Shown: positions 30,651-41,772 of the stretch, piece after piece | Layout: each line of letters opens with the position of its first letter | Position numbering within the stretch: the first letter of the stretch is position 1 | Assembly: GCA_963833095.1 (NCBI GenBank) | Contig: CAWHWQ010000001.1 | Location: 32,001-96,000, forward strand | Length of the DNA stretch: 64,000 nucleotides | Origin: Vulcanimicrobiota bacterium | GTDB taxonomy: Bacteria; Vulcanimicrobiota; Vulcanimicrobiia; Vulcanimicrobiales; Vulcanimicrobiaceae | Direction of reading: 5' to 3' | The notes under the pieces: generated by a model | Told to the model about the DNA's origin: nothing | Databases searched by the model: none | What the model saw: the letters and a program-made list of their open reading frames with translations, nothing else | Translations under genes and position numbers: made by a program

Positions 30651-32138
30651 TTAGAGGCGGATGGTCACCGTGGTGCCCCGTGCGGGCGCGCTATCGATAC
30701 CTATCGAGCCTCCGGCGCGTTCCACCGCGCGTTTGGCGATCGCTAGTCCGAGTCCACTTCCCGTTATTTCGCCGCGCTGATCGCCGCGGTAGAAACGCTC
30801 GAAGGCGTGCAGTCGCTCCGATTCGGTCATACCCGGACCCTCGTCGCGCACCGTAATCGTTGTGTGTCCGTTCGTCTTCACCGCGCGTAAATGAATCGGC
30901 GCCTCGGGCGCGTACTTCAGCGCATTTTCCACAACGTTCCATAATGCTTCGCCAAGCTCGGTGCGATCGCCGACTAATCCTTTGGTGCCATCAACGCTAT
31001 AGTCGATCTCTCGCGTCTCGTCCAAACGCCGCGCGGCATCACATTGACTGCGCAGCAGTTCAGCGAGATCGATTGATTCTGCTCGCGGTGGCGTTTCCGC
31101 GTCCAGTCGCGCAAGTCGCATCAACCGATCGATCAGGTTGCGCATATGCTCTTTCTCGAGCGACATCGTCCCGAGAATCTGGCGCGCGATCGTGGGCTCC
31201 GCGACGGCTCCGCGGCGGAGCACATCGATGTATCCGCCGATCACCGTCAGCGGCGTGCGCAGCTCGTGCCCCGCGTCGGCGACGAATTGCCGCATCCGCT
31301 CCTCGGTTTCGCGACGCTCGCTCATGGCATTCGCGACGCTTGCAGCGGCGTCGTTGTAGGCGGCGGTCAGCGTGCCGATCTCGTCGCCGCCCGGCGCGAT
31401 GAAACGGCGTTGCGTGAAATCACCGCCGGCAAGCGCATTGAGTGATTCGGTTAGGTCGTTGATCGGGCGCAGCGCCTGCTGCGCGAAGAAGCGGCCCACG
31501 AGCCACGAGAGCAGCATCGCAACGACGGCGACCACGATCACGACGCGCCAGTACGGAATCAGCGCCACGAGCACGAGCGGCATCGACGGCTCGAAGGCAA
31601 CATATCCGCCGTCGACAATGGCTACTTGCGACGGCTCGGGCAAGGGCCCGGAACCCGATGCGCCATTCGTCCGGAAAAGAAACGAGCCACGCGTCGAAGG
31701 GGGCGGCGAGCCGTAGGGCGGCGGGAAGAAAAACGCTCCAGGCGCAAAACGACCGCCCGTATTTGCCGGTCCGGGCGGCTGGCGAAAATGGGCGGCGACC
31801 ATGCGCCCGAGTAGGCGTGGGTGCACGCTCTTATCACCGCCCAAGAAGTTACCGTGGCTGTCGAATACCGCGACGCTGAGGCCGATGCTGCTTAGCGTGC
31901 TCGCAATCTGCGGGGCGGCGGCCTTGAGCGAGGTGCCGTCGGCGCGATATTGATCGACGAGCACGCGCGCCTCTTCGTGTTTGGCCACCACGATGCTCCG
32001 GCTGAAGCTGTCGAGATCGACGACCAGCGCGATGCTCGATGCGACGATCACCACGACGACGGTAATGCCCAGCAACACGGCGTAGAGCAGTGAGAGCCGC
32101 GAGACGATCGAAAGCTTCATTGCCGCCGTCTTCTTCAA
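30651..32138 (-). CDS. Sensor histidine kinase (HAMP, HisKA, HATPase)
   Basis: DAGHELRTPL, ENALKY, DEGPG, FERFYRG, GSGLGLAI. Confidence 0.95.
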   Translation of the reverse strand: MKKTAAMKLSIVSRLSLLYAVLLGITVVVVIVASSIALVVDLDSFSRSIVVAKHEEARVLVDQYRADGTSLKAAAPQIASTLSSIGLSVAVFDSHGNFLGGDKSVHPRLLGRMVAAHFRQPPGPANTGGRFAPGAFFFPPPYGSPPPSTRGSFLFRTNGASGSGPLPEPSQVAIVDGGYVAFEPSMPLVLVALIPYWRVVIVVAVVAMLLSWLVGRFFAQQALRPINDLTESLNALAGGDFTQRRFIAPGGDEIGTLTAAYNDAAASVANAMSERRETEERMRQFVADAGHELRTPLTVIGGYIDVLRRGAVAEPTIARQILGTMSLEKEHMRNLIDRLMRLARLDAETPPRAESIDLAELLRSQCDAARRLDETREIDYSVDGTKGLVGDRTELGEALWNVVENALKYAPEAPIHLRAVKTNGHTTITVRDEGPGMTESERLHAFERFYRGDQRGEITGSGLGLAIAKRAVERAGGSIGIDSAPARGTTVTIRL

Positions 32139-32144
32139 CTGGGC

Positions 32145-32843
32145 CTAATTATGCTGCGAGAGCCCGTACCCGACACCCCGCACCGTGCGAATGAACGAGC
32201 CACGCTCGCCGGGGCGATCGATCTTCGCACGGAGATACGAGATGTAGGTCTCGACGATGTTCGGTCCACCCTCGAAGTCATGTCCCCACACGATCTCGAG
32301 CAAGTGGTCTTTGCTGAAGACACGTCGCGGCTCACGCATGAAAACCGAAAGAAGGTCGAACTCGCGCTGCGTGAGCTCGATGCCGTCCTTCCCCCGCATG
32401 AGTTCGCGGGTTTGGGGATTGAGCGCGAGATCGCGCCAGCGGAGCACGTTCTCTTCGATCAATTGCGGCCGGCGCAACTTGGCTTGCAAGCGCGCGATCA
32501 ACTCTTCGAACACGAACGGCTTGACCAAGTAATCATCCGCACCCGCGGTGAGGCTCTGAACCTTGTCGTCGGTTCCGCCCTTTGCGGTGAGCATCACGAT
32601 CGGCGCTTGGGAAATCTCTCGCAGCTTGGGAAGGAGCGAGATACCGTCGATCTTGGGCATCATGATGTCGAGGACGATCACTTCGGGGTCGAAGCGCCGC
32701 ACCAACTCTAGTGCGGCAAAACCGTCGGCGGCGGATTGCACGTCGTAACCTTCGCGCGAGAGTCCGAGCTCGAGCATTTCACGAATCATCCGGTCGTCGT
32801 CAACCACGACCACCCGAGCATGAAGTAACGCAGTAGTAGCCAT
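32145..32843 (-). CDS. OmpR-family response regulator (MprA-like)
   Basis: VVDDD, LDIMMP, MLTAK, ADDYLVKPF, IRTVRGVGY. Confidence 0.95.
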   Translation of the reverse strand: MATTALLHARVVVVDDDRMIREMLELGLSREGYDVQSAADGFAALELVRRFDPEVIVLDIMMPKIDGISLLPKLREISQAPIVMLTAKGGTDDKVQSLTAGADDYLVKPFVFEELIARLQAKLRRPQLIEENVLRWRDLALNPQTRELMRGKDGIELTQREFDLLSVFMREPRRVFSKDHLLEIVWGHDFEGGPNIVETYISYLRAKIDRPGERGSFIRTVRGVGYGLSQHN

Positions 32844-32991: not shown

Positions 32992-33447
32992 TTAGGCAGC
33001 ACGCAAGGGTGATGGCCAGCGAGAATAGCGTTGGCCGCAGATCAGAGCGGCCTGCCGGATAGCCTCGAGCGGGTGGACCACCAGCGTCACGCCGTCCCGA
33101 CGGAGCGCCGCCGTCATCACGTCGTCCGGTAACCAGTGGGCAAAGAGATGCACTTCGGAGGTCTGGGCCGCGTGGGCAAGTTGGGCCAGCACCTCGGCAA
33201 GCGTGCAGCATCCCCGCTCGAGGAGCGGAGCGACCAAATCGGATTTGACCCGAGCCGCATTCCAGCCGGTGGCCAAGACCACGACCTTGGTGAGCTCGTT
33301 GCTGCTGCTGGATTCGAAGTCAACCAACGCAGCCCGAACGCTCGCGGCCAGGGCGCTGTCGGTCTGCGCGTGGAGGGTCGCGCCGGCGATGCTTGCACTC
33401 GGACCCGCGGTAAGGACCGCCCCCGAACCGATAACGTAGTCGTTCAT
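32992..33447 (-). CDS. Hypothetical protein
   Basis: 151 aa from MNDYVIG; co-oriented with neighbours; no motif recognised. Confidence 0.6.
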   Translation of the reverse strand: MNDYVIGSGAVLTAGPSASIAGATLHAQTDSALAASVRAALVDFESSSSNELTKVVVLATGWNAARVKSDLVAPLLERGCCTLAEVLAQLAHAAQTSEVHLFAHWLPDDVMTAALRRDGVTLVVHPLEAIRQAALICGQRYSRWPSPLRAA

Positions 33448-33574
33448 ACTCCGAGCTTCGCAGGGCGGAGTGCCATCTGTATGGCGCTTGCGAACTCGAC
33501 GGGAACTAAAGAGGCGCCGCATATAGCGACGCCTCTAGCCCACCACCCGGTAAGCATTTCCCCCCGCGCGGACA

Positions 33575-34561
33575 CTACGCAGAGGAAAGGTGTGTATGCG
33601 CGTGCGAGACGATCGTTACGCGTCGCGAGAACATCCCGAGCATCGCATCGATGACATCGGGATCCCACTGCGATCCGCGGCCGTCTTGCAGAACCTTGAG
33701 CGCCTGGCGAGGAGCGATCGGCTGACGATACGGCCGCTCGCTGATCATCGCGTGAAACGCATCGGCGACGGCCACGACCCGCGCTTCGAACGGAATGCTC
33801 GAACCGAAGATGCCGTCGGGATAGCCGGCGCCGTCGTACCGTTCGTGGTGCGCACGCACGATAATGGCGCAACGCTGTAACGACGGTATCTGACTAAGAA
33901 TACGCGCTCCGGCCGCCGCGTGATCGCGCATGATATCCCACTCGTCGAGTTCGAGCGGGGCAGGCTTGAGCAGCACGTGATCGGGCGTCGAAATCTTTCC
34001 AATATCGTGAAGCAGCGCGCACAGCGAGATGAATTCGCTGGCTTCGGCGTTGCAATCCATCGCGGTGGCCAAGCGGCGCGCCCATTCGGCCGTGGCCTTG
34101 GAGTGGCAGCACGTTCCGTAGTCGCGCTCGGCCAACATCGCGAGCAGTGCAGTGGTGCCCTCCATGCCGGGGCTGTCGGGGGTCTCCTCGCCATCACTGC
34201 CGAGCGCGCTACGCTCGATTTCGTTGGCGAGGACATCGAGAAAGGCCAAGAGCCGGCGCTGATCGGTTTCGTAGGCCCCCGCGGCAAGCGCGATCGTATG
34301 GGTCGCGGCGCCGGTCAAATCAACGACAGCCGCTCTGCCGAGGCGAGGGGTTTCGCGTTGCGCCCAGGTTGACAAACCGACCGGCTTGGCCAGCGTCAAC
34401 GACAAGCAGAGGCGATCCAGCAGCACCTCTAGCGCAGGCTCGATCTGGGTGCTCCCCATGAGCGAAGGCATCGTCACGTGATCGGTGGCGGAACGCGCCA
34501 ATTCCGGAATGCTCTGGCCCAATGCCGCCCCCAGGGCGGTCAACGTTCGTACGGCAGACAT
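33575..34561 (-). CDS. HD-GYP cyclic-dinucleotide phosphodiesterase with helical N-terminal domain
   Basis: LLHDIGK, HHERYDGAGYPDG, VADAFHAM..RPYR, QWDP. Confidence 0.92.
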   Translation of the reverse strand: MSAVRTLTALGAALGQSIPELARSATDHVTMPSLMGSTQIEPALEVLLDRLCLSLTLAKPVGLSTWAQRETPRLGRAAVVDLTGAATHTIALAAGAYETDQRRLLAFLDVLANEIERSALGSDGEETPDSPGMEGTTALLAMLAERDYGTCCHSKATAEWARRLATAMDCNAEASEFISLCALLHDIGKISTPDHVLLKPAPLELDEWDIMRDHAAAGARILSQIPSLQRCAIIVRAHHERYDGAGYPDGIFGSSIPFEARVVAVADAFHAMISERPYRQPIAPRQALKVLQDGRGSQWDPDVIDAMLGMFSRRVTIVSHAHTHLSSA

Positions 34562-34592
34562 GGCAAAAAAGTCCGAGCCAGTTTCGGCTGGG

Positions 34593-34658
34593 CTAATTCC
34601 CCATCGGGGGGGCGTCCGCCGCAACGATGAGGGTCGCAAGGATGAGAAGGGTCAGCAT
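34593..34658 (-). CDS. Small secreted-type peptide MLTLLILATLIVAADAPPMGN
   Basis: ATG..TAG read directly; GGAGG 13 nt upstream; hydrophobic core, VAA, polar 7-mer tail; alternative in-frame GTG at 34700. Confidence 0.55.
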   Translation of the reverse strand: MLTLLILATLIVAADAPPMGN

Positions 34659-34724
34659 GGGTGAGAACAAGCCTCCAAGCAGGTGCAGCGCTGCTATCAC
34701 GATAGCCGCTGGCCCAGGCCAAAA

Positions 34725-34748
34725 GCCCTACTGAAATTTAAGTAGGGC
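34725..34748. promoter_or_regulatory. Palindromic putative LuxR/NarL-type operator
   Basis: GCCCTACT-gaaattta-AGTAGGGC with core TACTGAA-AT-TTAAGTA (7-2-7); candidate -10 TATCGT at 34704-34699. Confidence 0.55.
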
Positions 34749-34753
34749 CGTTC

Positions 34754-37399
34754 CTACCCCTCGTTCAGGAGCCCAATTCGTCGGGCTGCGGCGATCGCTT
34801 CCGCCCTCCCATGGCACCCGAATTTATCGATGACGTTCTGGATGTGGGTCTGGACCGTATAAACCGACCGGCCCATCTCAGCGGCGATCTGCTTCGGCGT
34901 CAGTCCAGCTGCCAAGTCGCGCACAACGCGTAATTCCTGCGGAGTAAGCACGATGGCCGTCCCCGGTTCCTGTTCGCGCTGCAAGTGCGCGGCGACGTTT
35001 TCCACATAACGCGCGTATCCGCCGAAGCCGAATTGACGAATCGCCTCGATCGTTTCGTCGATTCCGTCGGGCGCATAGGACGGGCTCTTGGCAGCCCGCG
35101 CCAGCTCCTCGACGGCTTTGCGCATGCACGGCCCCGCCTCGTGTTGGCCGTGGTTTCTTCGCTTGAGCAAACGCGCAGCAGAGGTATGGCGTCCTGCGAC
35201 GATTTCGGCAAGCACGAGAATGGCCAAGGCAAAATCCAAAATCACGGCACCGGAGTACTGCTCCGGCGCAGCGATGTCGTCCACGAGACTCAAGGTCGTG
35301 GTGACCAAGGCGCCGCTTTCCTTGAAACGGCCGTCGAGCGCCAGAGCCAGCGCGCAGCTCGCCCGTACGATCGCACGGTCGGGGATGTGAGCTTGGCGAT
35401 CGATCACGCTTCCGAAGAGCCGGTGCGCATCCGCATAGTTGCCCACCCACGCATGCCGGTGCGCCTGACTGGATGCAAGGTATGTGCTCAGAGCCAGCGC
35501 GTCGCGAGGCGTAAGCTCCGCGAGCTGCTTCTCAATCTGGACAGCACGATCGGCATTTCCGCGGCGCGTTTCGAGACTGAGCATGAGCACCAGGGCGTTT
35601 TGAAGGTCCACGTAATCGCCGGCTCGCGTCGCGGCGGTCGCCGCCTGCTGCGCAAACCAGAGGCTCTGCGCCGAATCGCTTTCGCCAAACAGTGTCAGGA
35701 GTGACAGATTCCGGAATGAACGCGACGCGATGCTCCACAACGCGATCCTCGATCCGAGTTCGGCTGCCTCGGACAGCCGTTGACGCCCTCTTTCGATCTC
35801 GCCGACGTTGACGTGCGCTACGCCAATACGAAAGGCGATGCGCGCGAGCCATTCATCATTCTCAACGAGCGCGCTTTGAGCTTCGGCGGAATCGATGAGT
35901 CTGCGCGCCTCGGCCATATCCCCGGATCTGGCACGCCATTGCGCTAAGAGCGCTTCACCCTCCGCCCGGATCGGTCTGGGCAACGCCGGCTCTGAGAGCA
36001 AGTCCGACAAGAGATCCATGGCGTTCGCTTCAATGTTCGTGCGGTGTACTGCGAGACGAAGCATCAACTGCCCGCGCAATTCGGTCGATTCGATTGAGCG
36101 CGTGGAACGCGCAATCTTGCGCTCGCCTTCGTCGTATCTGCCGCGCGCGAGATCCAGAAGCCCGCGCAGCCCGGTGACGACGGCGTTTTTCTCGAACGCA
36201 TTCCCCAGCGACGCCGCGGTCAGCGACTCGAGCTCGTCGGCAAATCCGCTATCTAGTAATCGAATGCCGTGGGCGGCGAGCAGCCTCAGGGCGTCGTTCG
36301 GCGAATGCGAATCGACGTACAAGCGCAGCGCTTGCGTGACGTTGCCCCGCTGTTCAAGAATTTGGCCGAGCGTCGAGAGCCGGTCGCGCTGCACGCCACT
36401 GCCGCGCAATTCAATTTGGTGGCGTACGAAATCGCGGAAGAGGTCGTGCAGCCGATAGCGTCCCGGTTCGTACTCGTGAATGAACGCGACACGGGCGCGT
36501 AGATCCTCAATCAATGCCGCCGCGCGATCGAATCCGGCAGCGACCATCACGTCGAGATCGATCTCCGGAAGCAAAGCAGCGGTCTCGATAAAGTTCTGTT
36601 CCTCGCCGCTGAGCGTTTGGTACACTTGCTCGGCGAGATAGCGATAGATCATCTCGCGCGTCATCGACGAGATGTTGCGCAGATCGACTGAGCGTGTCGA
36701 CGAGCGCAGCGCGAAGGTCATCGCCGTCGCCCATCCATCGGTGAGCTGCAGGAGCTCGACTAATTCCTCATCGCGCACGCCCAAGCGGAAGGTGCGCGCG
36801 GCCTCTTTAGCTTCTTCGACCGAGAACTTCAGATCGTGTTCGTCGATCGCGAGGTCGCTTTCGCCGTAGGCGAGCCACGTGCCGATCGGTAAGCCGCTGG
36901 TTGCACGCGAGGCGATGATCCACTGCACCCGACCCTTGGTGCGTTCGATTAGCGACGTGACAAATCGCGCGACTTCGCGATCGCCCTGCGCGACGTGCAA
37001 ATCGTCGATCGCGATCACGCCGCGATACGAGCGCAAATGCGAATGCATCCACAGCGCCAGATCCGCGCCCGGCGACTGCGCTCCGGCATTCTTTTCGTAC
37101 GCGCCGGCCAGCGTTCCGCGCGCGTCGGGGGCGATCTCTACGACCGCGTCGGCGAACCCGCGAAGAAATCCGAGTAGCCCGGCGTTTTCAGACAATACGT
37201 CGTAACGAACGTGGGGCTCAGCGAGCGTATCGAGATAATGACGCAGGGCTACGGATTTTCCGTACCCCGCGGGAGCCACGATCAACACGACGCGCTGCAT
37301 CGCAGCAGAGGCGATCCGCTCGATGATGCGCCGCCGGATGATCGGAACGAAAACCCCGCCGGTCTCGATTTTTCCGTCGGGGCGAACGGGTCGAATCAT
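34754..37399 (-). CDS. MalT-like STAND ATPase with helical sensor region and C-terminal LuxR HTH
   Basis: APAGYGKS, IAIDDLH, GW motif, YRLHDLFRDF, LTPQE..GLTPKQIAAEMGRSVYTVQTH. Confidence 0.92.
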   Translation of the reverse strand: MIRPVRPDGKIETGGVFVPIIRRRIIERIASAAMQRVVLIVAPAGYGKSVALRHYLDTLAEPHVRYDVLSENAGLLGFLRGFADAVVEIAPDARGTLAGAYEKNAGAQSPGADLALWMHSHLRSYRGVIAIDDLHVAQGDREVARFVTSLIERTKGRVQWIIASRATSGLPIGTWLAYGESDLAIDEHDLKFSVEEAKEAARTFRLGVRDEELVELLQLTDGWATAMTFALRSSTRSVDLRNISSMTREMIYRYLAEQVYQTLSGEEQNFIETAALLPEIDLDVMVAAGFDRAAALIEDLRARVAFIHEYEPGRYRLHDLFRDFVRHQIELRGSGVQRDRLSTLGQILEQRGNVTQALRLYVDSHSPNDALRLLAAHGIRLLDSGFADELESLTAASLGNAFEKNAVVTGLRGLLDLARGRYDEGERKIARSTRSIESTELRGQLMLRLAVHRTNIEANAMDLLSDLLSEPALPRPIRAEGEALLAQWRARSGDMAEARRLIDSAEAQSALVENDEWLARIAFRIGVAHVNVGEIERGRQRLSEAAELGSRIALWSIASRSFRNLSLLTLFGESDSAQSLWFAQQAATAATRAGDYVDLQNALVLMLSLETRRGNADRAVQIEKQLAELTPRDALALSTYLASSQAHRHAWVGNYADAHRLFGSVIDRQAHIPDRAIVRASCALALALDGRFKESGALVTTTLSLVDDIAAPEQYSGAVILDFALAILVLAEIVAGRHTSAARLLKRRNHGQHEAGPCMRKAVEELARAAKSPSYAPDGIDETIEAIRQFGFGGYARYVENVAAHLQREQEPGTAIVLTPQELRVVRDLAAGLTPKQIAAEMGRSVYTVQTHIQNVIDKFGCHGRAEAIAAARRIGLLNEG

Positions 37400-37415
37400 G
37401 TGCTCCTAGGCGCCT

Positions 37416-37739
37416 TCAGCCAGGGGAAGCTCGGTACTCTTCCTGTCCCTCATAATACCCCAACAGCAGCTCTTCGACATAGAGCAGATGCAGATCGCGG
37501 TCAAGCTTCGAATAAGCCGCTGCGTTTTCGGCACGAAACCCGTCCCAATCAGCCTTGGAATTCCAAACATCCATGCAGAGATAGACTCCCGTCTCCGCCC
37601 GATGCCGAAACAGCCGCGTCCGCCGGTAACCGGGATGGCTTGAAAAAAGGGCGACCCAGGGGCCTGCGGGGCCATAGGCATGCTCGAACGCGCGAACCTG
37701 CGCGGGATGAACCCGGTAGCGGTAGAGCACTTCGATCAT
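37416..37739 (-). CDS. Antibiotic biosynthesis monooxygenase-like (ABM) protein
   Basis: FEHAYG..W..LF..HPGY, YLCMDVWNS pattern. Confidence 0.65.
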   Translation of the reverse strand: MIEVLYRYRVHPAQVRAFEHAYGPAGPWVALFSSHPGYRRTRLFRHRAETGVYLCMDVWNSKADWDGFRAENAAAYSKLDRDLHLLYVEELLLGYYEGQEEYRASPG

Positions 37740-38335
37740 CGTCGAAGGTCGAACTTTGCGGGCAACGGCACGTCCCCTTTGCCGATGGTCCGGCTGACAT
37801 CATACGCAATGAGATCACCCAGCGCGTCGAGCCGTGCCGCCAGCCACGTGTGTTGAGCCGGACACGTGATTTCCCCGAGCTCGAGCACCAGGGCTCCATC
37901 CTGCGCATCGACCTGCCGGAAGGCATAATAGTCGTGCAATCCCACCGTGAAATTGTCCGGCATGAAACGAAACGGAAAGAGCGGTGCGTAAAGCGCGCGC
38001 CAGAGCTCCGCGGCGTTGCGATCGGCGAGGCGATGATAGCCGATCGATGCGCCGCTGGTGCACGCCGGAACGGCGCCGTCAAAATGAATGAAGATGGCCA
38101 TTCCGACTGCATAGCGACCGTCGAAATCGGCCGGCTCACGAATCACGTGAAGTCCGTGCGCGCGCAGGACGCGCGTTGCTTCGTCGGCGACCACCGGGGT
38201 CCAATCACGCTCGCCGGACGCGCCTAGGTTGCATGCACGCGTTGGAAAACTCGCGCAAGACGCCGGACGCCCTTCATGGCCTGCCGAGATCAAGACATCG
38301 GCATGGACGAGCGCCGCGAAAACCAGCTCCAGCAT
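37736..38335 (-). CDS. N-acetylmuramoyl-L-alanine amidase-like (Amidase_3 fold) protein
   Basis: ISAGHEG, GERDW, FIHFDG, VLELG correspond to the Zn ligands and catalytic Glu. Confidence 0.7.
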   Translation of the reverse strand: MLELVFAALVHADVLISAGHEGRPASCASFPTRACNLGASGERDWTPVVADEATRVLRAHGLHVIREPADFDGRYAVGMAIFIHFDGAVPACTSGASIGYHRLADRNAAELWRALYAPLFPFRFMPDNFTVGLHDYYAFRQVDAQDGALVLELGEITCPAQHTWLAARLDALGDLIAYDVSRTIGKGDVPLPAKFDLRR

Positions 38336-41175
38336 TATGAGCCCGCGACCAGCGCGGAGAGCGTCGCCGAGGGTTCGACCTGCAGTTCGCTCCTGAGCAC
38401 TTCGCGATATTGCCGATAGGTGCGCAGCGCTGCCGCGCGATCACCGACCGCGAGATGCGCACGAATTGCGACTTCGCGTGCCGGCTCGTCACACGGATCG
38501 CAAGCGATCACATCGCCGGCAAAGGCAAGGGCGGCATCAGGATCGCCGCGCTCAAGTGCGTCCGCCGCCAATCGGTGCGCAATCCCCGTGCGCAGGTCAT
38601 CCATGCGCTGCGCTACCGGAGCGAACCACTCCCAGCGTTCGAGCGCACCTGCGCGTTCTTCACGCAAACGTTCCCAGGCGCGTCCAAGAGCTGCGCGGTC
38701 GCCTTCGCGTAGCCGGTCGCGCGAACGTAGCGCCAAGGCGGCGCGATCGATCTCCCATACGTCGACGAACGCGTCGGCATGCAGCCGATATCCGTCGGCT
38801 TCGCGTTCCACTGCGTCCTCGCGCCCAAGATGCCCGCGTAAACGGTGCAGACAAACGCTCAGCGCATTGCGCGCGGCAAAATCGTCGAGATCCGGCCAAA
38901 GCATTGCCGCCAGGCGCCCACGCAGTGTCGGCTCGCGGCGCTGCGCGATCGCTGCGAGCAGTTCGAGTTCGCGCCCCGACACACGCGCTAGCGTGCCGTC
39001 CACACGCACGCGCCCACCGAGAATCTCAAGTGCGAGCGGCGCCGCTTCGCTGCGGTCGCGCGTGATCTGCGCGACGAAATTCGAGAGCATTCCAACGTTC
39101 TCGTGCTGGTTGGCAAACGCGCCCACCGCGTGAACGAACGCTGGTGCGTCACAGTGCGCAGCGGCCTCTTTCGCGCGCGCGGATGCCGCATCGAACGCGG
39201 TGGGATCGCACAGCGCCAGGGCTATACCCGCCAACGCTTCAACAAACGGCATATGCACCTGGCCGGCCAACTCGAGCGCCGAGTTCGCAAGCGCGGTGCG
39301 TTCCTCGTCGTCGCGCGAGCGCGAGAGAGCGATCAGCCGGCCAAACACGACGAATTTCGGGATGTCGGCGGCGCAGGGTTGTACGCTGTGCCCGCGCGCC
39401 GCTGCGGCGAGATAGGCAAAGCCGGCAACGCCGCCGCGCGTCACGAGGCCTTCGAGCTCCGCGGCGATCGCGTTAAACGCCGGCCGGTCACCCGAAAACC
39501 ACGCGGCGATGAGCGATTCGGCAGTATCGAACGCCATGAAATTGGGCAACCCTGACTGTATTGCGCGCTCGTGCGCGCGGGCCAAGAACTGACGCTCGAG
39601 CGACCATTCCCCACGCACGCGCGCGATGTCGGCACCTAACGCCAGATACGTCCCCGACGCGACGACGTGCATTTGATCGATCAGCGGAAGCGCAGCATTG
39701 AGGTCCCTCTCACCGAGATCGAAATGACCGCTACGCGCGCGCAAGATTCCGCGTAGATACAAGACATGGCCATCAAGCATGGTCGCGGGCGGATCGGAAA
39801 ATCCGATCTGCCCTTCAAAATCCGCAATTGCGACGAGCGCTTCGTCGAGCTTGCCCACGTAGCTCATCAGCAAGATGCGAAAAACGAAGACGTAGTAACG
39901 CTCCATCGGCGTTGCGTTACGGGCGAGAGTCCTCCACACCGTTTCGGCCTCGTCGAGCAGCGCTGAGCTATCGACGCAGAAGATGCGCATCAACGCGGTG
40001 ACGCCCCACAAACGTGGATACCGCGCAACGATCGCCCGGTCTAGACCTGAGAGAACCTGCGCGTAGCGCATCGACGGAGCCGGCTCGCGCACCACTTCAA
40101 GCGAGCCAAGCGCACGCGCCGCAGCGTGTTGATCGCCGCGGGCGATATGCAGCTCTGCCGCGCGTTGAAAATTACCGCGACCTTCTTGCGTTTGCGCCAG
40201 CCGCAAAAGCAACGCATCACGCCGGTCCTGCGCATGCTCGAGCAAAAGTGCGCAAAGTAGCGGGTGCAGTGAAAATGAACCGTTCTCCCCGCGCTCGATG
40301 AAGGCGGCGTCCCGGGCAAATTCGCTCACATCGTCAACGATCGATGGATCGTCGAGGGCGGCGCGCAAGTCGTCCGCAGTCGCCTGCGGAATTGCAGCGC
40401 AAGCGAAGAGCGCGTCGAGCATGCGGCGATTCAACCCGGCGAGCACCTCGTCGGCGAGATAGTCGTGCAATTCGTCAAAAGCAACGTCGTCGAGTCGCTC
40501 CAGCAGTTGGTCGATCCGCCCTTCGCTTGCGAATCGCCTCAAAAGGAATACGGCGACCGGCCATCCTTGCGAGACCCTAAAGATGCGCTCGATCGAGCTG
40601 TCCTCGATCGTAAGCGGCGCAAAAATTTCGCGAATGTCGGCTGGGTTGAATGCAAGGTCGCCGGCACGTAACGTGACGATTTCGTGGGGCACCGCGTATT
40701 TCGTCAGGTGCCCGCGCAGTGGCTCGCGCGAGCAAATGACCACGGTTCGTCCGGCAGGCCGAGCCACGAGGAGCCGTGCGAAAAGTTCGCGGGCGCCCGG
40801 AGCGTCCGCCAGACGCTCGACGCCTTCGAAGACGATGCAGCCTTGGGCGGGTTCGCGCCAAACGTCGAGCGCCAGCGACACGCGCTCTGCGACGCTGGTG
40901 CCGCCATCGCCAAGCATCAACTCGCGTTGCGTCAGGTCGCGTTCGCGACCCGGATTTTCGCCGGCGAGAGCCGGGATGAGGCAGCGCGCCAAATCGAGCT
41001 CGTCTCGGACGTTCGCGCAATCGCAAACCGCGCCGCTCCCGCGCTCGGCGAGAAATTGCTGCACCAGCGTCGATTTGCCAAAGCCCGCCGGGGCGACGAT
41101 CGCAACCAGCCGGGCATCCACCTTGCGCAGCCGTTCAAGAAGCCGGTCGCGCCGGAGCGAGCCGCCCACCACCAT
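38335..41175 (-). CDS. MalT-like STAND ATPase with C-terminal wHTH-BTAD (SARP-type) output
   Basis: APAGFGKS, QGWP, MLWPD..ARNALSVCLHRLR, DPCDE, ELQVEPS. Confidence 0.9.
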   Translation of the reverse strand: MVVGGSLRRDRLLERLRKVDARLVAIVAPAGFGKSTLVQQFLAERGSGAVCDCANVRDELDLARCLIPALAGENPGRERDLTQRELMLGDGGTSVAERVSLALDVWREPAQGCIVFEGVERLADAPGARELFARLLVARPAGRTVVICSREPLRGHLTKYAVPHEIVTLRAGDLAFNPADIREIFAPLTIEDSSIERIFRVSQGWPVAVFLLRRFASEGRIDQLLERLDDVAFDELHDYLADEVLAGLNRRMLDALFACAAIPQATADDLRAALDDPSIVDDVSEFARDAAFIERGENGSFSLHPLLCALLLEHAQDRRDALLLRLAQTQEGRGNFQRAAELHIARGDQHAAARALGSLEVVREPAPSMRYAQVLSGLDRAIVARYPRLWGVTALMRIFCVDSSALLDEAETVWRTLARNATPMERYYVFVFRILLMSYVGKLDEALVAIADFEGQIGFSDPPATMLDGHVLYLRGILRARSGHFDLGERDLNAALPLIDQMHVVASGTYLALGADIARVRGEWSLERQFLARAHERAIQSGLPNFMAFDTAESLIAAWFSGDRPAFNAIAAELEGLVTRGGVAGFAYLAAAARGHSVQPCAADIPKFVVFGRLIALSRSRDDEERTALANSALELAGQVHMPFVEALAGIALALCDPTAFDAASARAKEAAAHCDAPAFVHAVGAFANQHENVGMLSNFVAQITRDRSEAAPLALEILGGRVRVDGTLARVSGRELELLAAIAQRREPTLRGRLAAMLWPDLDDFAARNALSVCLHRLRGHLGREDAVEREADGYRLHADAFVDVWEIDRAALALRSRDRLREGDRAALGRAWERLREERAGALERWEWFAPVAQRMDDLRTGIAHRLAADALERGDPDAALAFAGDVIACDPCDEPAREVAIRAHLAVGDRAAALRTYRQYREVLRSELQVEPSATLSALVAGS

Positions 41176-41220: not shown

Positions 41221-41280
41221 CCCGGGAAAGCACGCACGGCTACGATGGCGGGGCCAGCCGAGCCAACGGAAAGGCAACCA

Positions 41281-41772
41281 ATGACCGTCGTTACTCAGCC
41301 CACAAGCGTTCTCGTGGTTGGTCCAGAAGCGTCGGTTCGCACCGCCATCGCGCGCCTGCTCTCTTTAGAGAGTAGCGTTCGCGTCGCCGGGACTGCGCCG
41401 AGCATGGCGCAAGCCACCGGTATCGATGCCGATGTGATCATCGACGAGACCCTCTTACACGAGCTCAAGGACGTTTCGATCGCCGACTTCATCACCATGG
41501 TGAAGGCCCTGCCACCGGCCGCCCCGTCTTTTGCGCCCCCTCGCCACCTTCACCCCCTTACCGGTAGCCGGGACATGCGCGCGGCCCTTTCGGACCGCGA
41601 ACTCCAGGTCGTGCGGCTGGTGGCCGAAGGGCTCTCGAACAAGCAAATCAGCATCCGGCTGGAGCTCTCGGATAAGACCGTCAAGAACCACATCTCGCAT
41701 ATCCTCGCCAAGCTGAACCTTTCAGCTCGCACGCAAGTAGCGGTGCACGCGTTGCGTGCCGGCTTGGTCTAA
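41281..41772 (+). CDS. LuxR-family regulator with truncated receiver domain
   Basis: LSDRELQVVRLVAEGLSNKQI..LSDKTVKNH; GAAAGG RBS. Confidence 0.88.
   Translation: MTVVTQPTSVLVVGPEASVRTAIARLLSLESSVRVAGTAPSMAQATGIDADVIIDETLLHELKDVSIADFITMVKALPPAAPSFAPPRHLHPLTGSRDMRAALSDRELQVVRLVAEGLSNKQISIRLELSDKTVKNHISHILAKLNLSARTQVAVHALRAGLV

Follow-up and report, generated by a model that had tools for sequence, protein, structure and literature searches.

A conserved cassette of a MalT-like regulator gene, a 7-2-7 inverted repeat, a small open reading frame and an HD-GYP gene in Candidatus Eremiobacterota

The DNA analysed here is a stretch of 64,000 nt from a Vulcanimicrobiota bacterium (assembly GCA_963833095.1, contig CAWHWQ010000001.1, positions 32,001 to 96,000), which we refer to as the window and whose positions serve as coordinates throughout. 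It contains a cassette, with all parts on the minus strand, in which the gene of a large STAND/LuxR-type regulator is followed by an inverted repeat, a small open reading frame (ORF) and a gene for an HD-GYP protein. An earlier reading of the DNA letters, here called the original prediction, had singled out this cassette as a candidate peptide-signalling system; the features that it described are all present on the minus strand and its description is correct apart from trivial details. The parts of the cassette, and the gene g176 that follows it, are:

34754..37399, minus strand: gene of the LAL regulator, 881 amino acids, assigned with Pfam, a PDB profile search and NCBIfam; its domains, in order, are a STAND NTPase with Walker A near residues 42-49, a TPR-like sensor from about residue 411 to 800 and a helix-turn-helix (HTH) of the GerE/LuxR type at 817-870
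34725..34748, no strand: inverted repeat of 24 nt with perfect 8-bp arms and an 8-nt spacer, the proposed operator
34729..34744, no strand: 16-bp 7-2-7 core of the repeat, its heptamers symmetric at 6/7 positions
34704..34699, minus strand: -10-like hexamer TATCGT, beginning 32 nt from the repeat centre
34676..34672, minus strand: Shine-Dalgarno sequence GGAGG, 13 nt 5' of the ATG of the small ORF
34593..34658, minus strand: small ORF, 21 amino acids plus stop (ATG at 34658, last codon ending at 34596, stop codon 34595..34593)
34565..34589, minus strand: hairpin and T-run between the small ORF and the HD-GYP gene, a terminator-like site in the scan
33575..34561, minus strand: gene of the HD-GYP protein, 328 amino acids, with an HD_5 domain (ATG at 34561)
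32992..33447, minus strand: g176, about 150 amino acids, conserved, 3' of the cassette

By its domain matches the 881-amino acid protein is a LAL, i.e. MalT-like STAND, regulator, as had been proposed. Pfam places GerE at residues 817-870 (E 1.1e-12) and AAA_22 and AAA_16 in the N-terminal part, with AAA_22 over its cut-off. In a PDB search with a profile of the regulator and its relatives, MalT (8bob, 8bob_C) was matched over residues 19-407 (E 3.1e-24), the TPR sensor PH0952 (6mfv, 6mfv_A) over residues 125-624 (E 1.2e-12), designed PPR/TPR proteins over residues 338-634 and GerE/NarL-type DNA-binding domains over residues 803-876. The NCBIfam model for MalT (PRK04841) matched with E 3.2e-34, under its equivalog cut-off, and the Pfam TPR matches were below the family cut-offs. 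The Walker A motif G-x-G-K-S is nearly invariant among the relatives of the regulator.

A collection scan found 362 relatives of the regulator, and the best 80 were taken for locus comparison. From the window and these 80 loci we excluded four without the C-terminus of the regulator and four with less than 330 nt of downstream sequence, which left 73 usable loci, namely the window and 72 of the best 80 of 362 relatives, with regulators 36-83% identical. One layout recurs 3' of the regulator in this sample: MalT-like STAND/LuxR gene, 16-bp 7-2-7 repeat, -10-like hexamer, Shine-Dalgarno sequence, small ORF and HD-GYP gene. A TA-started 7-2-7 repeat that is symmetric at 5/7 positions or more and has a TAnnnT hexamer at a distance of 30-33 nt (measured from the repeat centre) occurs in 64/73 loci, an HD-GYP gene starting within 330 nt in 70/73 and an intact, typical small ORF in 68/73. 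The original assignment of the HD-GYP gene as the downstream partner in an operon is borne out by these counts and by its position 3' of the regulator in the loci L001-L019. Orthologues of the regulator were found in 17/17 genomes of the same genus (62-83% identity) and in 28/41 of the relative genomes searched overall, and in 0/11 genomes searched from the other family of the class. Both the cassette and its internal layout are thus conserved.

Two further groups of loci mark the limits of the cassette. Four paralogous LAL genes (L021-L024, about 30% identical) are followed by a gene for a larger lipoprotein with A-L-P-G repeats; none of them has the repeat, the small ORF or an HD-GYP gene at its 3' side, and the cassette therefore appears to be confined to one LAL lineage. 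In a decayed copy (L028, G023:C1:2123400-2129700) the regulator gene carries four stop codons (two TGA, two TAG) and the repeat is retained, the small ORF has shrunk to Met-Thr-stop, and the HD-GYP gene gives a partial match (query residues 123-320 of 328). We count this linked fate of regulator, small ORF and HD-GYP gene in favor of the operon.

The palindrome in the window begins 5 nt past the regulator stop codon, not 6 as first described; the perfect arms stand. Likewise, the 7-2-7 arrangement of TAC heptamers holds, with the qualification that the two heptamers are not identical, TACTTAA and TACTGAA being different at one position (in some relatives they are symmetric at 7/7). That there is no consensus -35 element agrees with the finding that the hexamer at 17-bp spacing shares 0/6 positions with TTGACA, and a consensus scan of 33300..38500 gave no sigma-70-like promoter. 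With up to three mismatches, the core 16-mer occurs in the window only at this site (0 expected from 100 shuffles) and an 18-mer of the site occurs once in the 2.8-Mb assembly (80.7% complete). An Rfam search of 34400-34900 returned a chance-level match alone (E 0.73).

Taken by itself, the palindrome might be read as merely the intrinsic terminator of the regulator gene, since the window sequence can form a stem of 9 bp with TTTT directly behind it. We consider this extremely improbable. The fold is no better than that of shuffled sequences (z -1.0; 33/200 shuffles at least as stable), and an alignment of the genus copies shows a core that hardly changes, loop-forming spacer included, beside outer arms that do not stay complementary and a T-run confined to the window, a pattern that does not qualify as a terminator. 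Moreover, the repeat lies between -17 and +44 nt of the regulator stop codon across the family, overlapping the coding end in several loci (-17, -7), and yet keeps its distance to the -10-like hexamer, which in each of the 52 strict-rule loci begins 31-32 nt away from the centre of the repeat. Because of this fixed spacing, the repeat centre would lie near -44 of the inferred start site. The hexamer is TATCGT or TATGGT in the genus, the start codon of the small ORF is 70-84 nt from the repeat centre in 43 loci, and a Shine-Dalgarno-like motif precedes the small ORF family-wide.

The half-sites vary by clade (TACT, TACC, TACCCAA, TAGT/TAAC, TAAT) and they do so symmetrically, such that the palindrome is preserved (TACC..GGTA, TACCCAA..TTGGGTA). 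This variation is paralleled in the recognition helix of the regulator: Gln-Thr-His is present in 32/33 loci with TACT/TACT half-sites, Ala takes the position of the Thr in 17/23 loci with a TAGT, TAAC, TAAT or TCGT half-site, and Lys-His is found two residues on in 6/7 TACC/TACC loci. As the clades are kin, this co-variation is an association and not a proof. In the portion of PMC4549865 available to us, NarL output domains are described to bind 7-2-7 sites as dimers, and such sites at -40..-49 and -38..-47 are those through which NarL activates napF and yeaR. The proposal that the palindrome is a NarL-type 7-2-7 site at an activating promoter position is consistent with its conserved format and spacing and with its being kept as a sequence and not as a hairpin. 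Based on the conserved loop, the unconserved T-run, the fixed distance to the promoter and the co-variation of half-site and helix, we suggest that the repeat is a candidate operator rather than a terminator and that the adjacent regulator probably binds it and activates the promoter, a relation for which the support is good.

The small ORF begins 95 nt past the regulator stop codon and is missing from the annotation track of the window, in agreement with the absence of its exact 21-amino acid product among about 15 billion predicted proteins. The family peptides of 20-25 amino acids are likewise absent from these proteins and those of 39-45 amino acids are present, unnamed; the product of the small ORF has no Pfam or NCBIfam family. 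Its frame is free of in-frame stops in 13/13 genus copies, and the other two frames are stopped in 7 and 4 copies; over the same copies the pooled ratio of nonsynonymous to synonymous polymorphism (pN/pS) is 0.62, compared with 0.92 and 1.69 in the other frames. The ORF is intact in 18/19 of the loci L001-L019. A rule-based search picked it in 68/73 loci and 64 of these picks are intact and typical, the others being frameshifted (L078), atypical (L068 and L077) or doubtful (L107). The rule missed L088, L090 and L100, which have no rule-conform Shine-Dalgarno sequence, and L096, which has a GTG start; these four and the 64 picks make up the 68/73 intact, typical small ORFs given above. The fifth locus that the rule missed, L047, has the small ORF with a 1-nt deletion. 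The check that had been suggested with the original prediction, a search of the flanks of regulator homologues for a TAC..GTA palindrome and for a small hydrophobic ORF whose tail is rich in Pro and Gly, thus turned out positive. The open frame in the genus and the intact copies across the loci fit a conserved, translated-looking gene, and we are highly confident that, judged by this pattern, the small ORF is a real gene.

The peptide encoded in the window, MLTLLILATLIVAADAPPMGN, is hydrophobic and free of Lys, Arg and Cys, and its C-terminal tail is rich in Pro. Across the family the product has 20-45 amino acids, and its usual plan is M-(L/V/I)-T, 10-17 hydrophobic residues and a Pro-rich tail. 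Among the 68 picks, Pro is found within the last eight residues in 64, Pro-Pro within the last eight in 43 and Gly within the last three in 55. Any Lys or Arg is found in 2/68 picks, both atypical, and in 0/48 aligned peptides; the lack of a basic N-region, which the original prediction had listed as a caveat, is therefore a property of the family, and for this reason the peptide does not carry a classical Sec or lipoprotein signal. A Cys stands at the boundary between hydrophobic part and tail in 21/48 aligned peptides, in a lipobox-like context in 15/48, and the window has Ala at this place; with no Lys, Arg or Cys, the window peptide does not qualify as a bacterial lipoprotein precursor. 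The cleavage after V-A-A that had been proposed to free the tail found no support: the tripeptide is unconserved within the genus, where relatives have A-C, C-C or L-D, and many relatives have the lipobox-like Cys.

In a sister family of loci (L029-L032, L117-L120; regulator identity about 26-29%) a gene for a lipoprotein of about 50 amino acids takes the place of the small ORF, and an HD-GYP gene then follows. The order in this slot is a TACC-type repeat, a -10-like hexamer, GGAGG and the lipoprotein gene. The N-terminus of the protein is basic, its lipobox reads L-A-A-C and a conserved PD(S/G)GG(L/M)PPN(H/L) motif lies at its C-terminus. Basic N-region, hydrophobic core and lipobox Cys, the three features looked for in a lipoprotein precursor, are all present; since it is a textbook small lipoprotein, its tail is presumably exported.

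Other variants concern the tail itself. Three tandem copies of a unit of 7-9 residues are found in L033 (DAPSPGF; L033:1749-1952, minus strand) and in L077 (VVPVGGA), the latter in an ORF about 130 nt past the regulator stop codon and with no hydrophobic N-part; such a layout is typical of processed peptides. In one clade (L083, L087, L097, L112, L115, L116) the small ORF has 36-45 amino acids and a second conserved G-x-x-A-L-P-G motif between the hydrophobic part and a PP(A/G)(G/S)VG tail. Acidic, amphipathic or non-hydrophobic N-parts occur in some clades (L086, L092, L095, L068, L077), and the acidic amphipathic N-parts of one clade argue against a simple membrane anchor. From these patterns, the chances appear evenly balanced that the peptide is an exported pro-peptide with the tail as its active part.

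The HD-GYP protein is matched by HD_5 in Pfam (E 5.6e-38) and by the NosR-family domain of c-di-GMP phosphodiesterases in NCBIfam (E 1e-37), and its translation shows the HD and HHE..DG.GYP motifs. Its N-terminal domain of about 140 residues has no Pfam or NCBIfam family and reached Atlas scores of just 0.76-0.77. Between the small ORF and this gene, a hairpin at or below -7.4 kcal/mol, of unrelated sequence but in the same place and followed by a T-rich stretch, is found in 11/15 genus relatives, starting 3-10 nt past the stop codon of the small ORF. In other genera the gap between small ORF and HD-GYP gene is often 4-16 nt and has no hairpin. Judged from this distribution, the hairpin is probably a leaky terminator or attenuator that yields more peptide than enzyme message, a feature of the genus and not part of the core mechanism; as a universal attenuator it was rejected, being largely confined to this genus.

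The hairpin also bears on the possibility that the small ORF is a cis-acting leader peptide, in which a ribosome that stalls on the Pro-Pro tail or on the stop codon would mask the hairpin and set the read-through into the HD-GYP gene. The HD-GYP gene, which has no Shine-Dalgarno site of its own, the position of the hairpin and T-run in the genus just past the stop codon and the Pro-Pro of the 43 tails would suit such a leader, but 25/68 peptides have no Pro-Pro, most other genera have a weak hairpin or none, and attenuation would give no role to the conserved hydrophobic character, to the lipobox-like Cys, to the homologous lipoprotein or to the tandem cores. We regard a leader peptide as improbable.

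Alternatively, the small ORF could encode a membrane or amphipathic protein that is retained in the cell and tethers or modulates the HD-GYP protein or g176 through its Pro-rich tail. The tight linkage of the small ORF to either gene, with gaps of 4-16 nt in several genera, the HD-GYP N-domain without a family and the position of g176 behind the cassette speak for such a partner, which we nevertheless consider unlikely, if somewhat less so than a leader peptide. The hydrophobic stretch in the genus comprises about 13 residues, which is short for a membrane span, the N-parts are acidic or non-hydrophobic in some clades, the hairpin and T-run in the genus suggest far more peptide than enzyme message, and the lipoprotein version in the sister family places the tail outside the cytoplasm.

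g176 was found by tblastn in 62 of the best 80 loci. It has no Pfam, NCBIfam, PDB-sequence or Atlas match, and a PDB profile search with g176 and with the HD-GYP N-domain gave nothing below E 0.03. Its AlphaFold2 model has a pLDDT of 86.7 and no Foldseek match at E of 0.001 or less; the best VIA Z of the model was 5.5 and several Xaa-Pro peptidase N-domains reached Z 3.3-4.1, all at noise level. Immediately 5' of the g176 start (about 33448..33490, minus strand) lies a conserved stretch with an H-T-G-G-T-like translation before the Met in many loci, which may be a ribosome-binding or regulatory element.

A conserved gene of this kind with no clear fold match could also be a tailoring enzyme. 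Pathway-specific activation of secondary-metabolite clusters is a typical role of LAL regulators, and the small ORF might accordingly be the precursor of a ribosomally made, modified peptide, with the LAL protein as cluster-situated activator and g176 or the HD protein as tailoring enzyme; the layout of leader plus core and the variants with tandem cores would be in keeping with such a precursor. However, the conserved block has no recognisable maturase, protease or exporter, and the HD-GYP protein keeps the canonical motif of a c-di-GMP phosphodiesterase. We therefore give a modified peptide very little weight.

Combining the conservation of the layout with the geometry of the promoter region, we suggest that the cassette is a conserved operon of Baltobacteraceae (Candidatus Eremiobacterota, equivalent to Vulcanimicrobiota) in which a small peptide and an HD-GYP enzyme are made under the control of the LAL regulator, and we put the probability of this reading at roughly 0.55. 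In this model, (i) the STAND/LuxR protein, switched on by a ligand and ATP, would bind the 16-bp 7-2-7 repeat via a pair of GerE domains, (ii) binding about 44 bp upstream of the start, as geometry, conservation and co-variation suggest, would activate a -10-only promoter in a class-II-like manner, (iii) a short transcript would carry the 21-amino acid peptide gene, the reality of which is indicated by its conservation, and (iv) in the genus, most transcripts would probably end at the hairpin and T-run past the small ORF, and read-through would give the HD-GYP phosphodiesterase, and probably g176 too, and lower c-di-GMP. The peptide would most likely be a pro-peptide, in which the variable hydrophobic N-part resembles the remnant of a lipoprotein-type export signal and the conserved Pro-rich last 6-8 residues (here DAPPMGN) form the functional part and act outside the cytoplasm, at about even odds.

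Several observations weigh against this model. A pN/pS of 0.62 reflects a real but weak purifying selection on the small ORF. The Shine-Dalgarno spacing in the genus is long, at 13 nt, as the original prediction had itself conceded. There is no basic N-region, and the window has Ala in place of the lipobox Cys; a single export route is doubtful because some clades have acidic or non-hydrophobic N-parts. The HD-GYP protein is not an obligatory output, because its gene is missing in L110 and L113, where g176 lies directly 3' of the small ORF. Finally, the association between recognition helix and half-site is confounded by shared ancestry.

The central proposal of the original prediction was that the freed tail is sensed by the STAND regulator in a feedback loop. 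A comparison of the window with its two closest relatives, L037 and L039, bears on this proposal. The synonymous difference is 0.33-0.34 over regulator codons 1-300 and 0.34-0.36 over the HD-GYP gene, and it is 0.68-0.71, i.e. saturated, over regulator codons 361-881, so that the divergence switches near codon 300-360; the mosaic divergence was noted at window positions 35000..36400, and the saturation runs on to the small ORF. Sliding nucleotide identity is 0.62-0.78 from the regulator arm to the small ORF and returns to 0.84-0.94 in the HD-GYP gene, and the small ORF itself is 0.68-0.71 identical, as in saturated pairs, compared with 0.86-0.90 in pairs of uniformly low divergence. The ratio of nonsynonymous to synonymous substitution rates (dN/dS) is below 0.15 throughout, sensor domain included. 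This shared divergent block indicates that a single recombination event swapped sensor, HTH, operator and small ORF together. The block weakly fits a co-adapted specificity module; it is one event, and adjacency alone could explain it. When L045 is compared with L048 and L050, it is the HD-GYP gene that diverges more, which suggests a recurrent breakpoint near the junction of small ORF and HD-GYP gene.

A closed loop of this kind would have the exported C-terminal peptide re-imported and bound by the TPR-like STAND sensor, an autoinducer circuit like those of the RRNPP family on a MalT-type receptor. The adjacency, the small propeptide and the TPR-bearing transcription factor match the RRNPP signature in the available part of PMC10075063. 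In addition, the operator lies inside the promoter of the peptide itself and is the sole such site in the assembly, the peptide joins a variable pro-region to a conserved C-terminal core and has multi-copy variants, the OppA-type binding-protein family SBP_bac_5 is matched 12 times in the genome (11 times over the family cut-off), and the mosaic block resembles a swapped specificity module. On the other hand, that block is one event explicable by adjacency, the dN/dS of the sensor domain shows no sign of diversifying selection, OppA-like proteins are common (11/14 control genomes have an SBP_bac_5 match over the cut-off), and a receptor of 881 amino acids with a GerE HTH falls outside the RRNPP definition. 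We consider the closed loop possible at best. That the sensor domain of the regulator senses the tail of the peptide is no more than a tentative proposal, and equally speculative is the full circuit of new architecture that would follow, in which a signal-less or lipobox-type propeptide of 20-45 amino acids would give rise to a Pro-rich peptide of 6-9 residues, the peptide would be sensed by the TPR domain of the STAND/LuxR protein, auto-induction would ensue, c-di-GMP would go down via the HD-GYP protein, and sensor, HTH, operator and peptide would be exchanged as one block.

The neighbouring genes add an alternative candidate receptor for an exported peptide. At 30651..32843 on the minus strand, 3' of g176, lie the genes of an OmpR-type response regulator (232 amino acids) and a HAMP/HisKA kinase (495 amino acids). 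Among the best 80 loci the response regulator is present in 66, with 77-98% identity, and the HAMP histidine kinase in 61; the N-terminal part of the kinase is about 40-84% identical even within the genus. This membrane kinase is the candidate in question. On the other side of the cassette, a second STAND protein of 946 amino acids (38335..41175, minus strand) has an N-terminal AAA_16 and a C-terminal Trans_reg_C and BTAD, the reverse of the usual domain order in SARP/AfsR proteins. Two small ORFs without a family (37736..38335 and 37406..37681; 199 and 91 amino acids) lie between this gene and the LAL gene, with 6 nt between the 91-amino acid ORF and the LAL gene, and the four genes look like an operon. 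Synteny upstream of the LAL gene is kept mainly within the genus. A stand-alone GerE/LuxR protein of 175 amino acids (41245..41772, plus strand; GerE E 1.1e-19) is encoded divergently upstream of the STAND cluster.

Peat and soil harbour abundant Candidatus Eremiobacterota, a phylum in which, to our knowledge, the regulation of behaviour is almost unexplored. The cassette described here offers a pairing of regulator and operator that is linked to c-di-GMP turnover, together with a new family of unannotated small proteins, the 20-25-amino acid members of which are missed by gene callers. We regard the cassette as new and well supported, and its quorum-sensing reading as a hypothesis. If the peptide were the ligand of the regulator, the sensing of peptides in the cytoplasm would reach beyond the RRNPP receptors of Firmicutes to include STAND ATPases, many phyla would offer LAL regulators of unassigned ligand as candidate peptide sensors, and the cassette would be the first such circuit outside the RRNPP receptors, in an uncultured phylum.

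Among known systems, MalT-like LAL regulators share with the cassette regulator a P-loop nucleotide-binding oligomerization domain homologous to that of MalT, a TPR-like sensor and a C-terminal GerE/LuxR HTH, and the cassette regulator, like them, probably activates an adjacent promoter. It differs from them in its target, a tiny peptide gene and an HD-GYP gene, and in its operator: MalT operators are arrays of MalT boxes, whereas the candidate operator here is a single NarL-like 7-2-7 palindrome at about -44. With HD-GYP phosphodiesterases the downstream enzyme shares HD_5 and the HD and HHE..DG.GYP motifs; unlike these, it has no receiver domain and an N-domain of about 140 residues without a family, and its gene is probably co-transcribed with a small ORF. 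The repeat resembles NarL/GerE operators in its two inverted TAC heptamers 2 bp apart, its total length of 16 bp and a position as in the activating sites of napF and yeaR (PMC4549865, available portion), with the difference that the putative binder is a STAND regulator and not a response regulator.

A further parallel is with the RRNPP pairs (Rap, Rgg, NprR, PlcR, PrgX, AimR, ComR), for which we rely on the available portions of PMC10075063 and of a preprint (bioRxiv 10.1101/2024.03.06.583649). The former defines them by a propeptide gene of 10-100 amino acids directly adjacent to a receptor of 250-500 amino acids; the cassette has such an adjacent gene, and its receptor, at 881 amino acids, lies outside the range. 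RRNPP_detector-type tools filter receptors to the same 250-500 amino acids (PMC10075063) and because of this filter would not report the cassette. No described STAND- or LAL-based peptide quorum system was found in the Creative Commons-licensed PMC and bioRxiv literature; the portion of the preprint available to us speculates that mycobacterial TPR-bearing LAL/LuxR proteins parallel RRNPP receptors and names no peptide (10.1101/2024.03.06.583649). In common with the RRNPP pairs, the cassette has a small propeptide gene beside the gene of a cytoplasmic, repeat-bearing transcription factor, and a peptide with its conserved part at the C-terminus and no classical Sec signal, as in SHP and PrgQ, which belong to the RRNPP propeptides that use PptAB instead (PMC10075063). 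In contrast, RRNPP receptors have 250-500 amino acids (PMC10075063) and carry a Cro/C1-type HTH (10.1101/2024.03.06.583649), and the RRNPP pairs belong to Firmicutes, whereas the cassette is found in Eremiobacterota. With a receptor of 881 amino acids that combines a STAND NTPase and a GerE HTH, the system is therefore not a member of the RRNPP family, though it may work like one.

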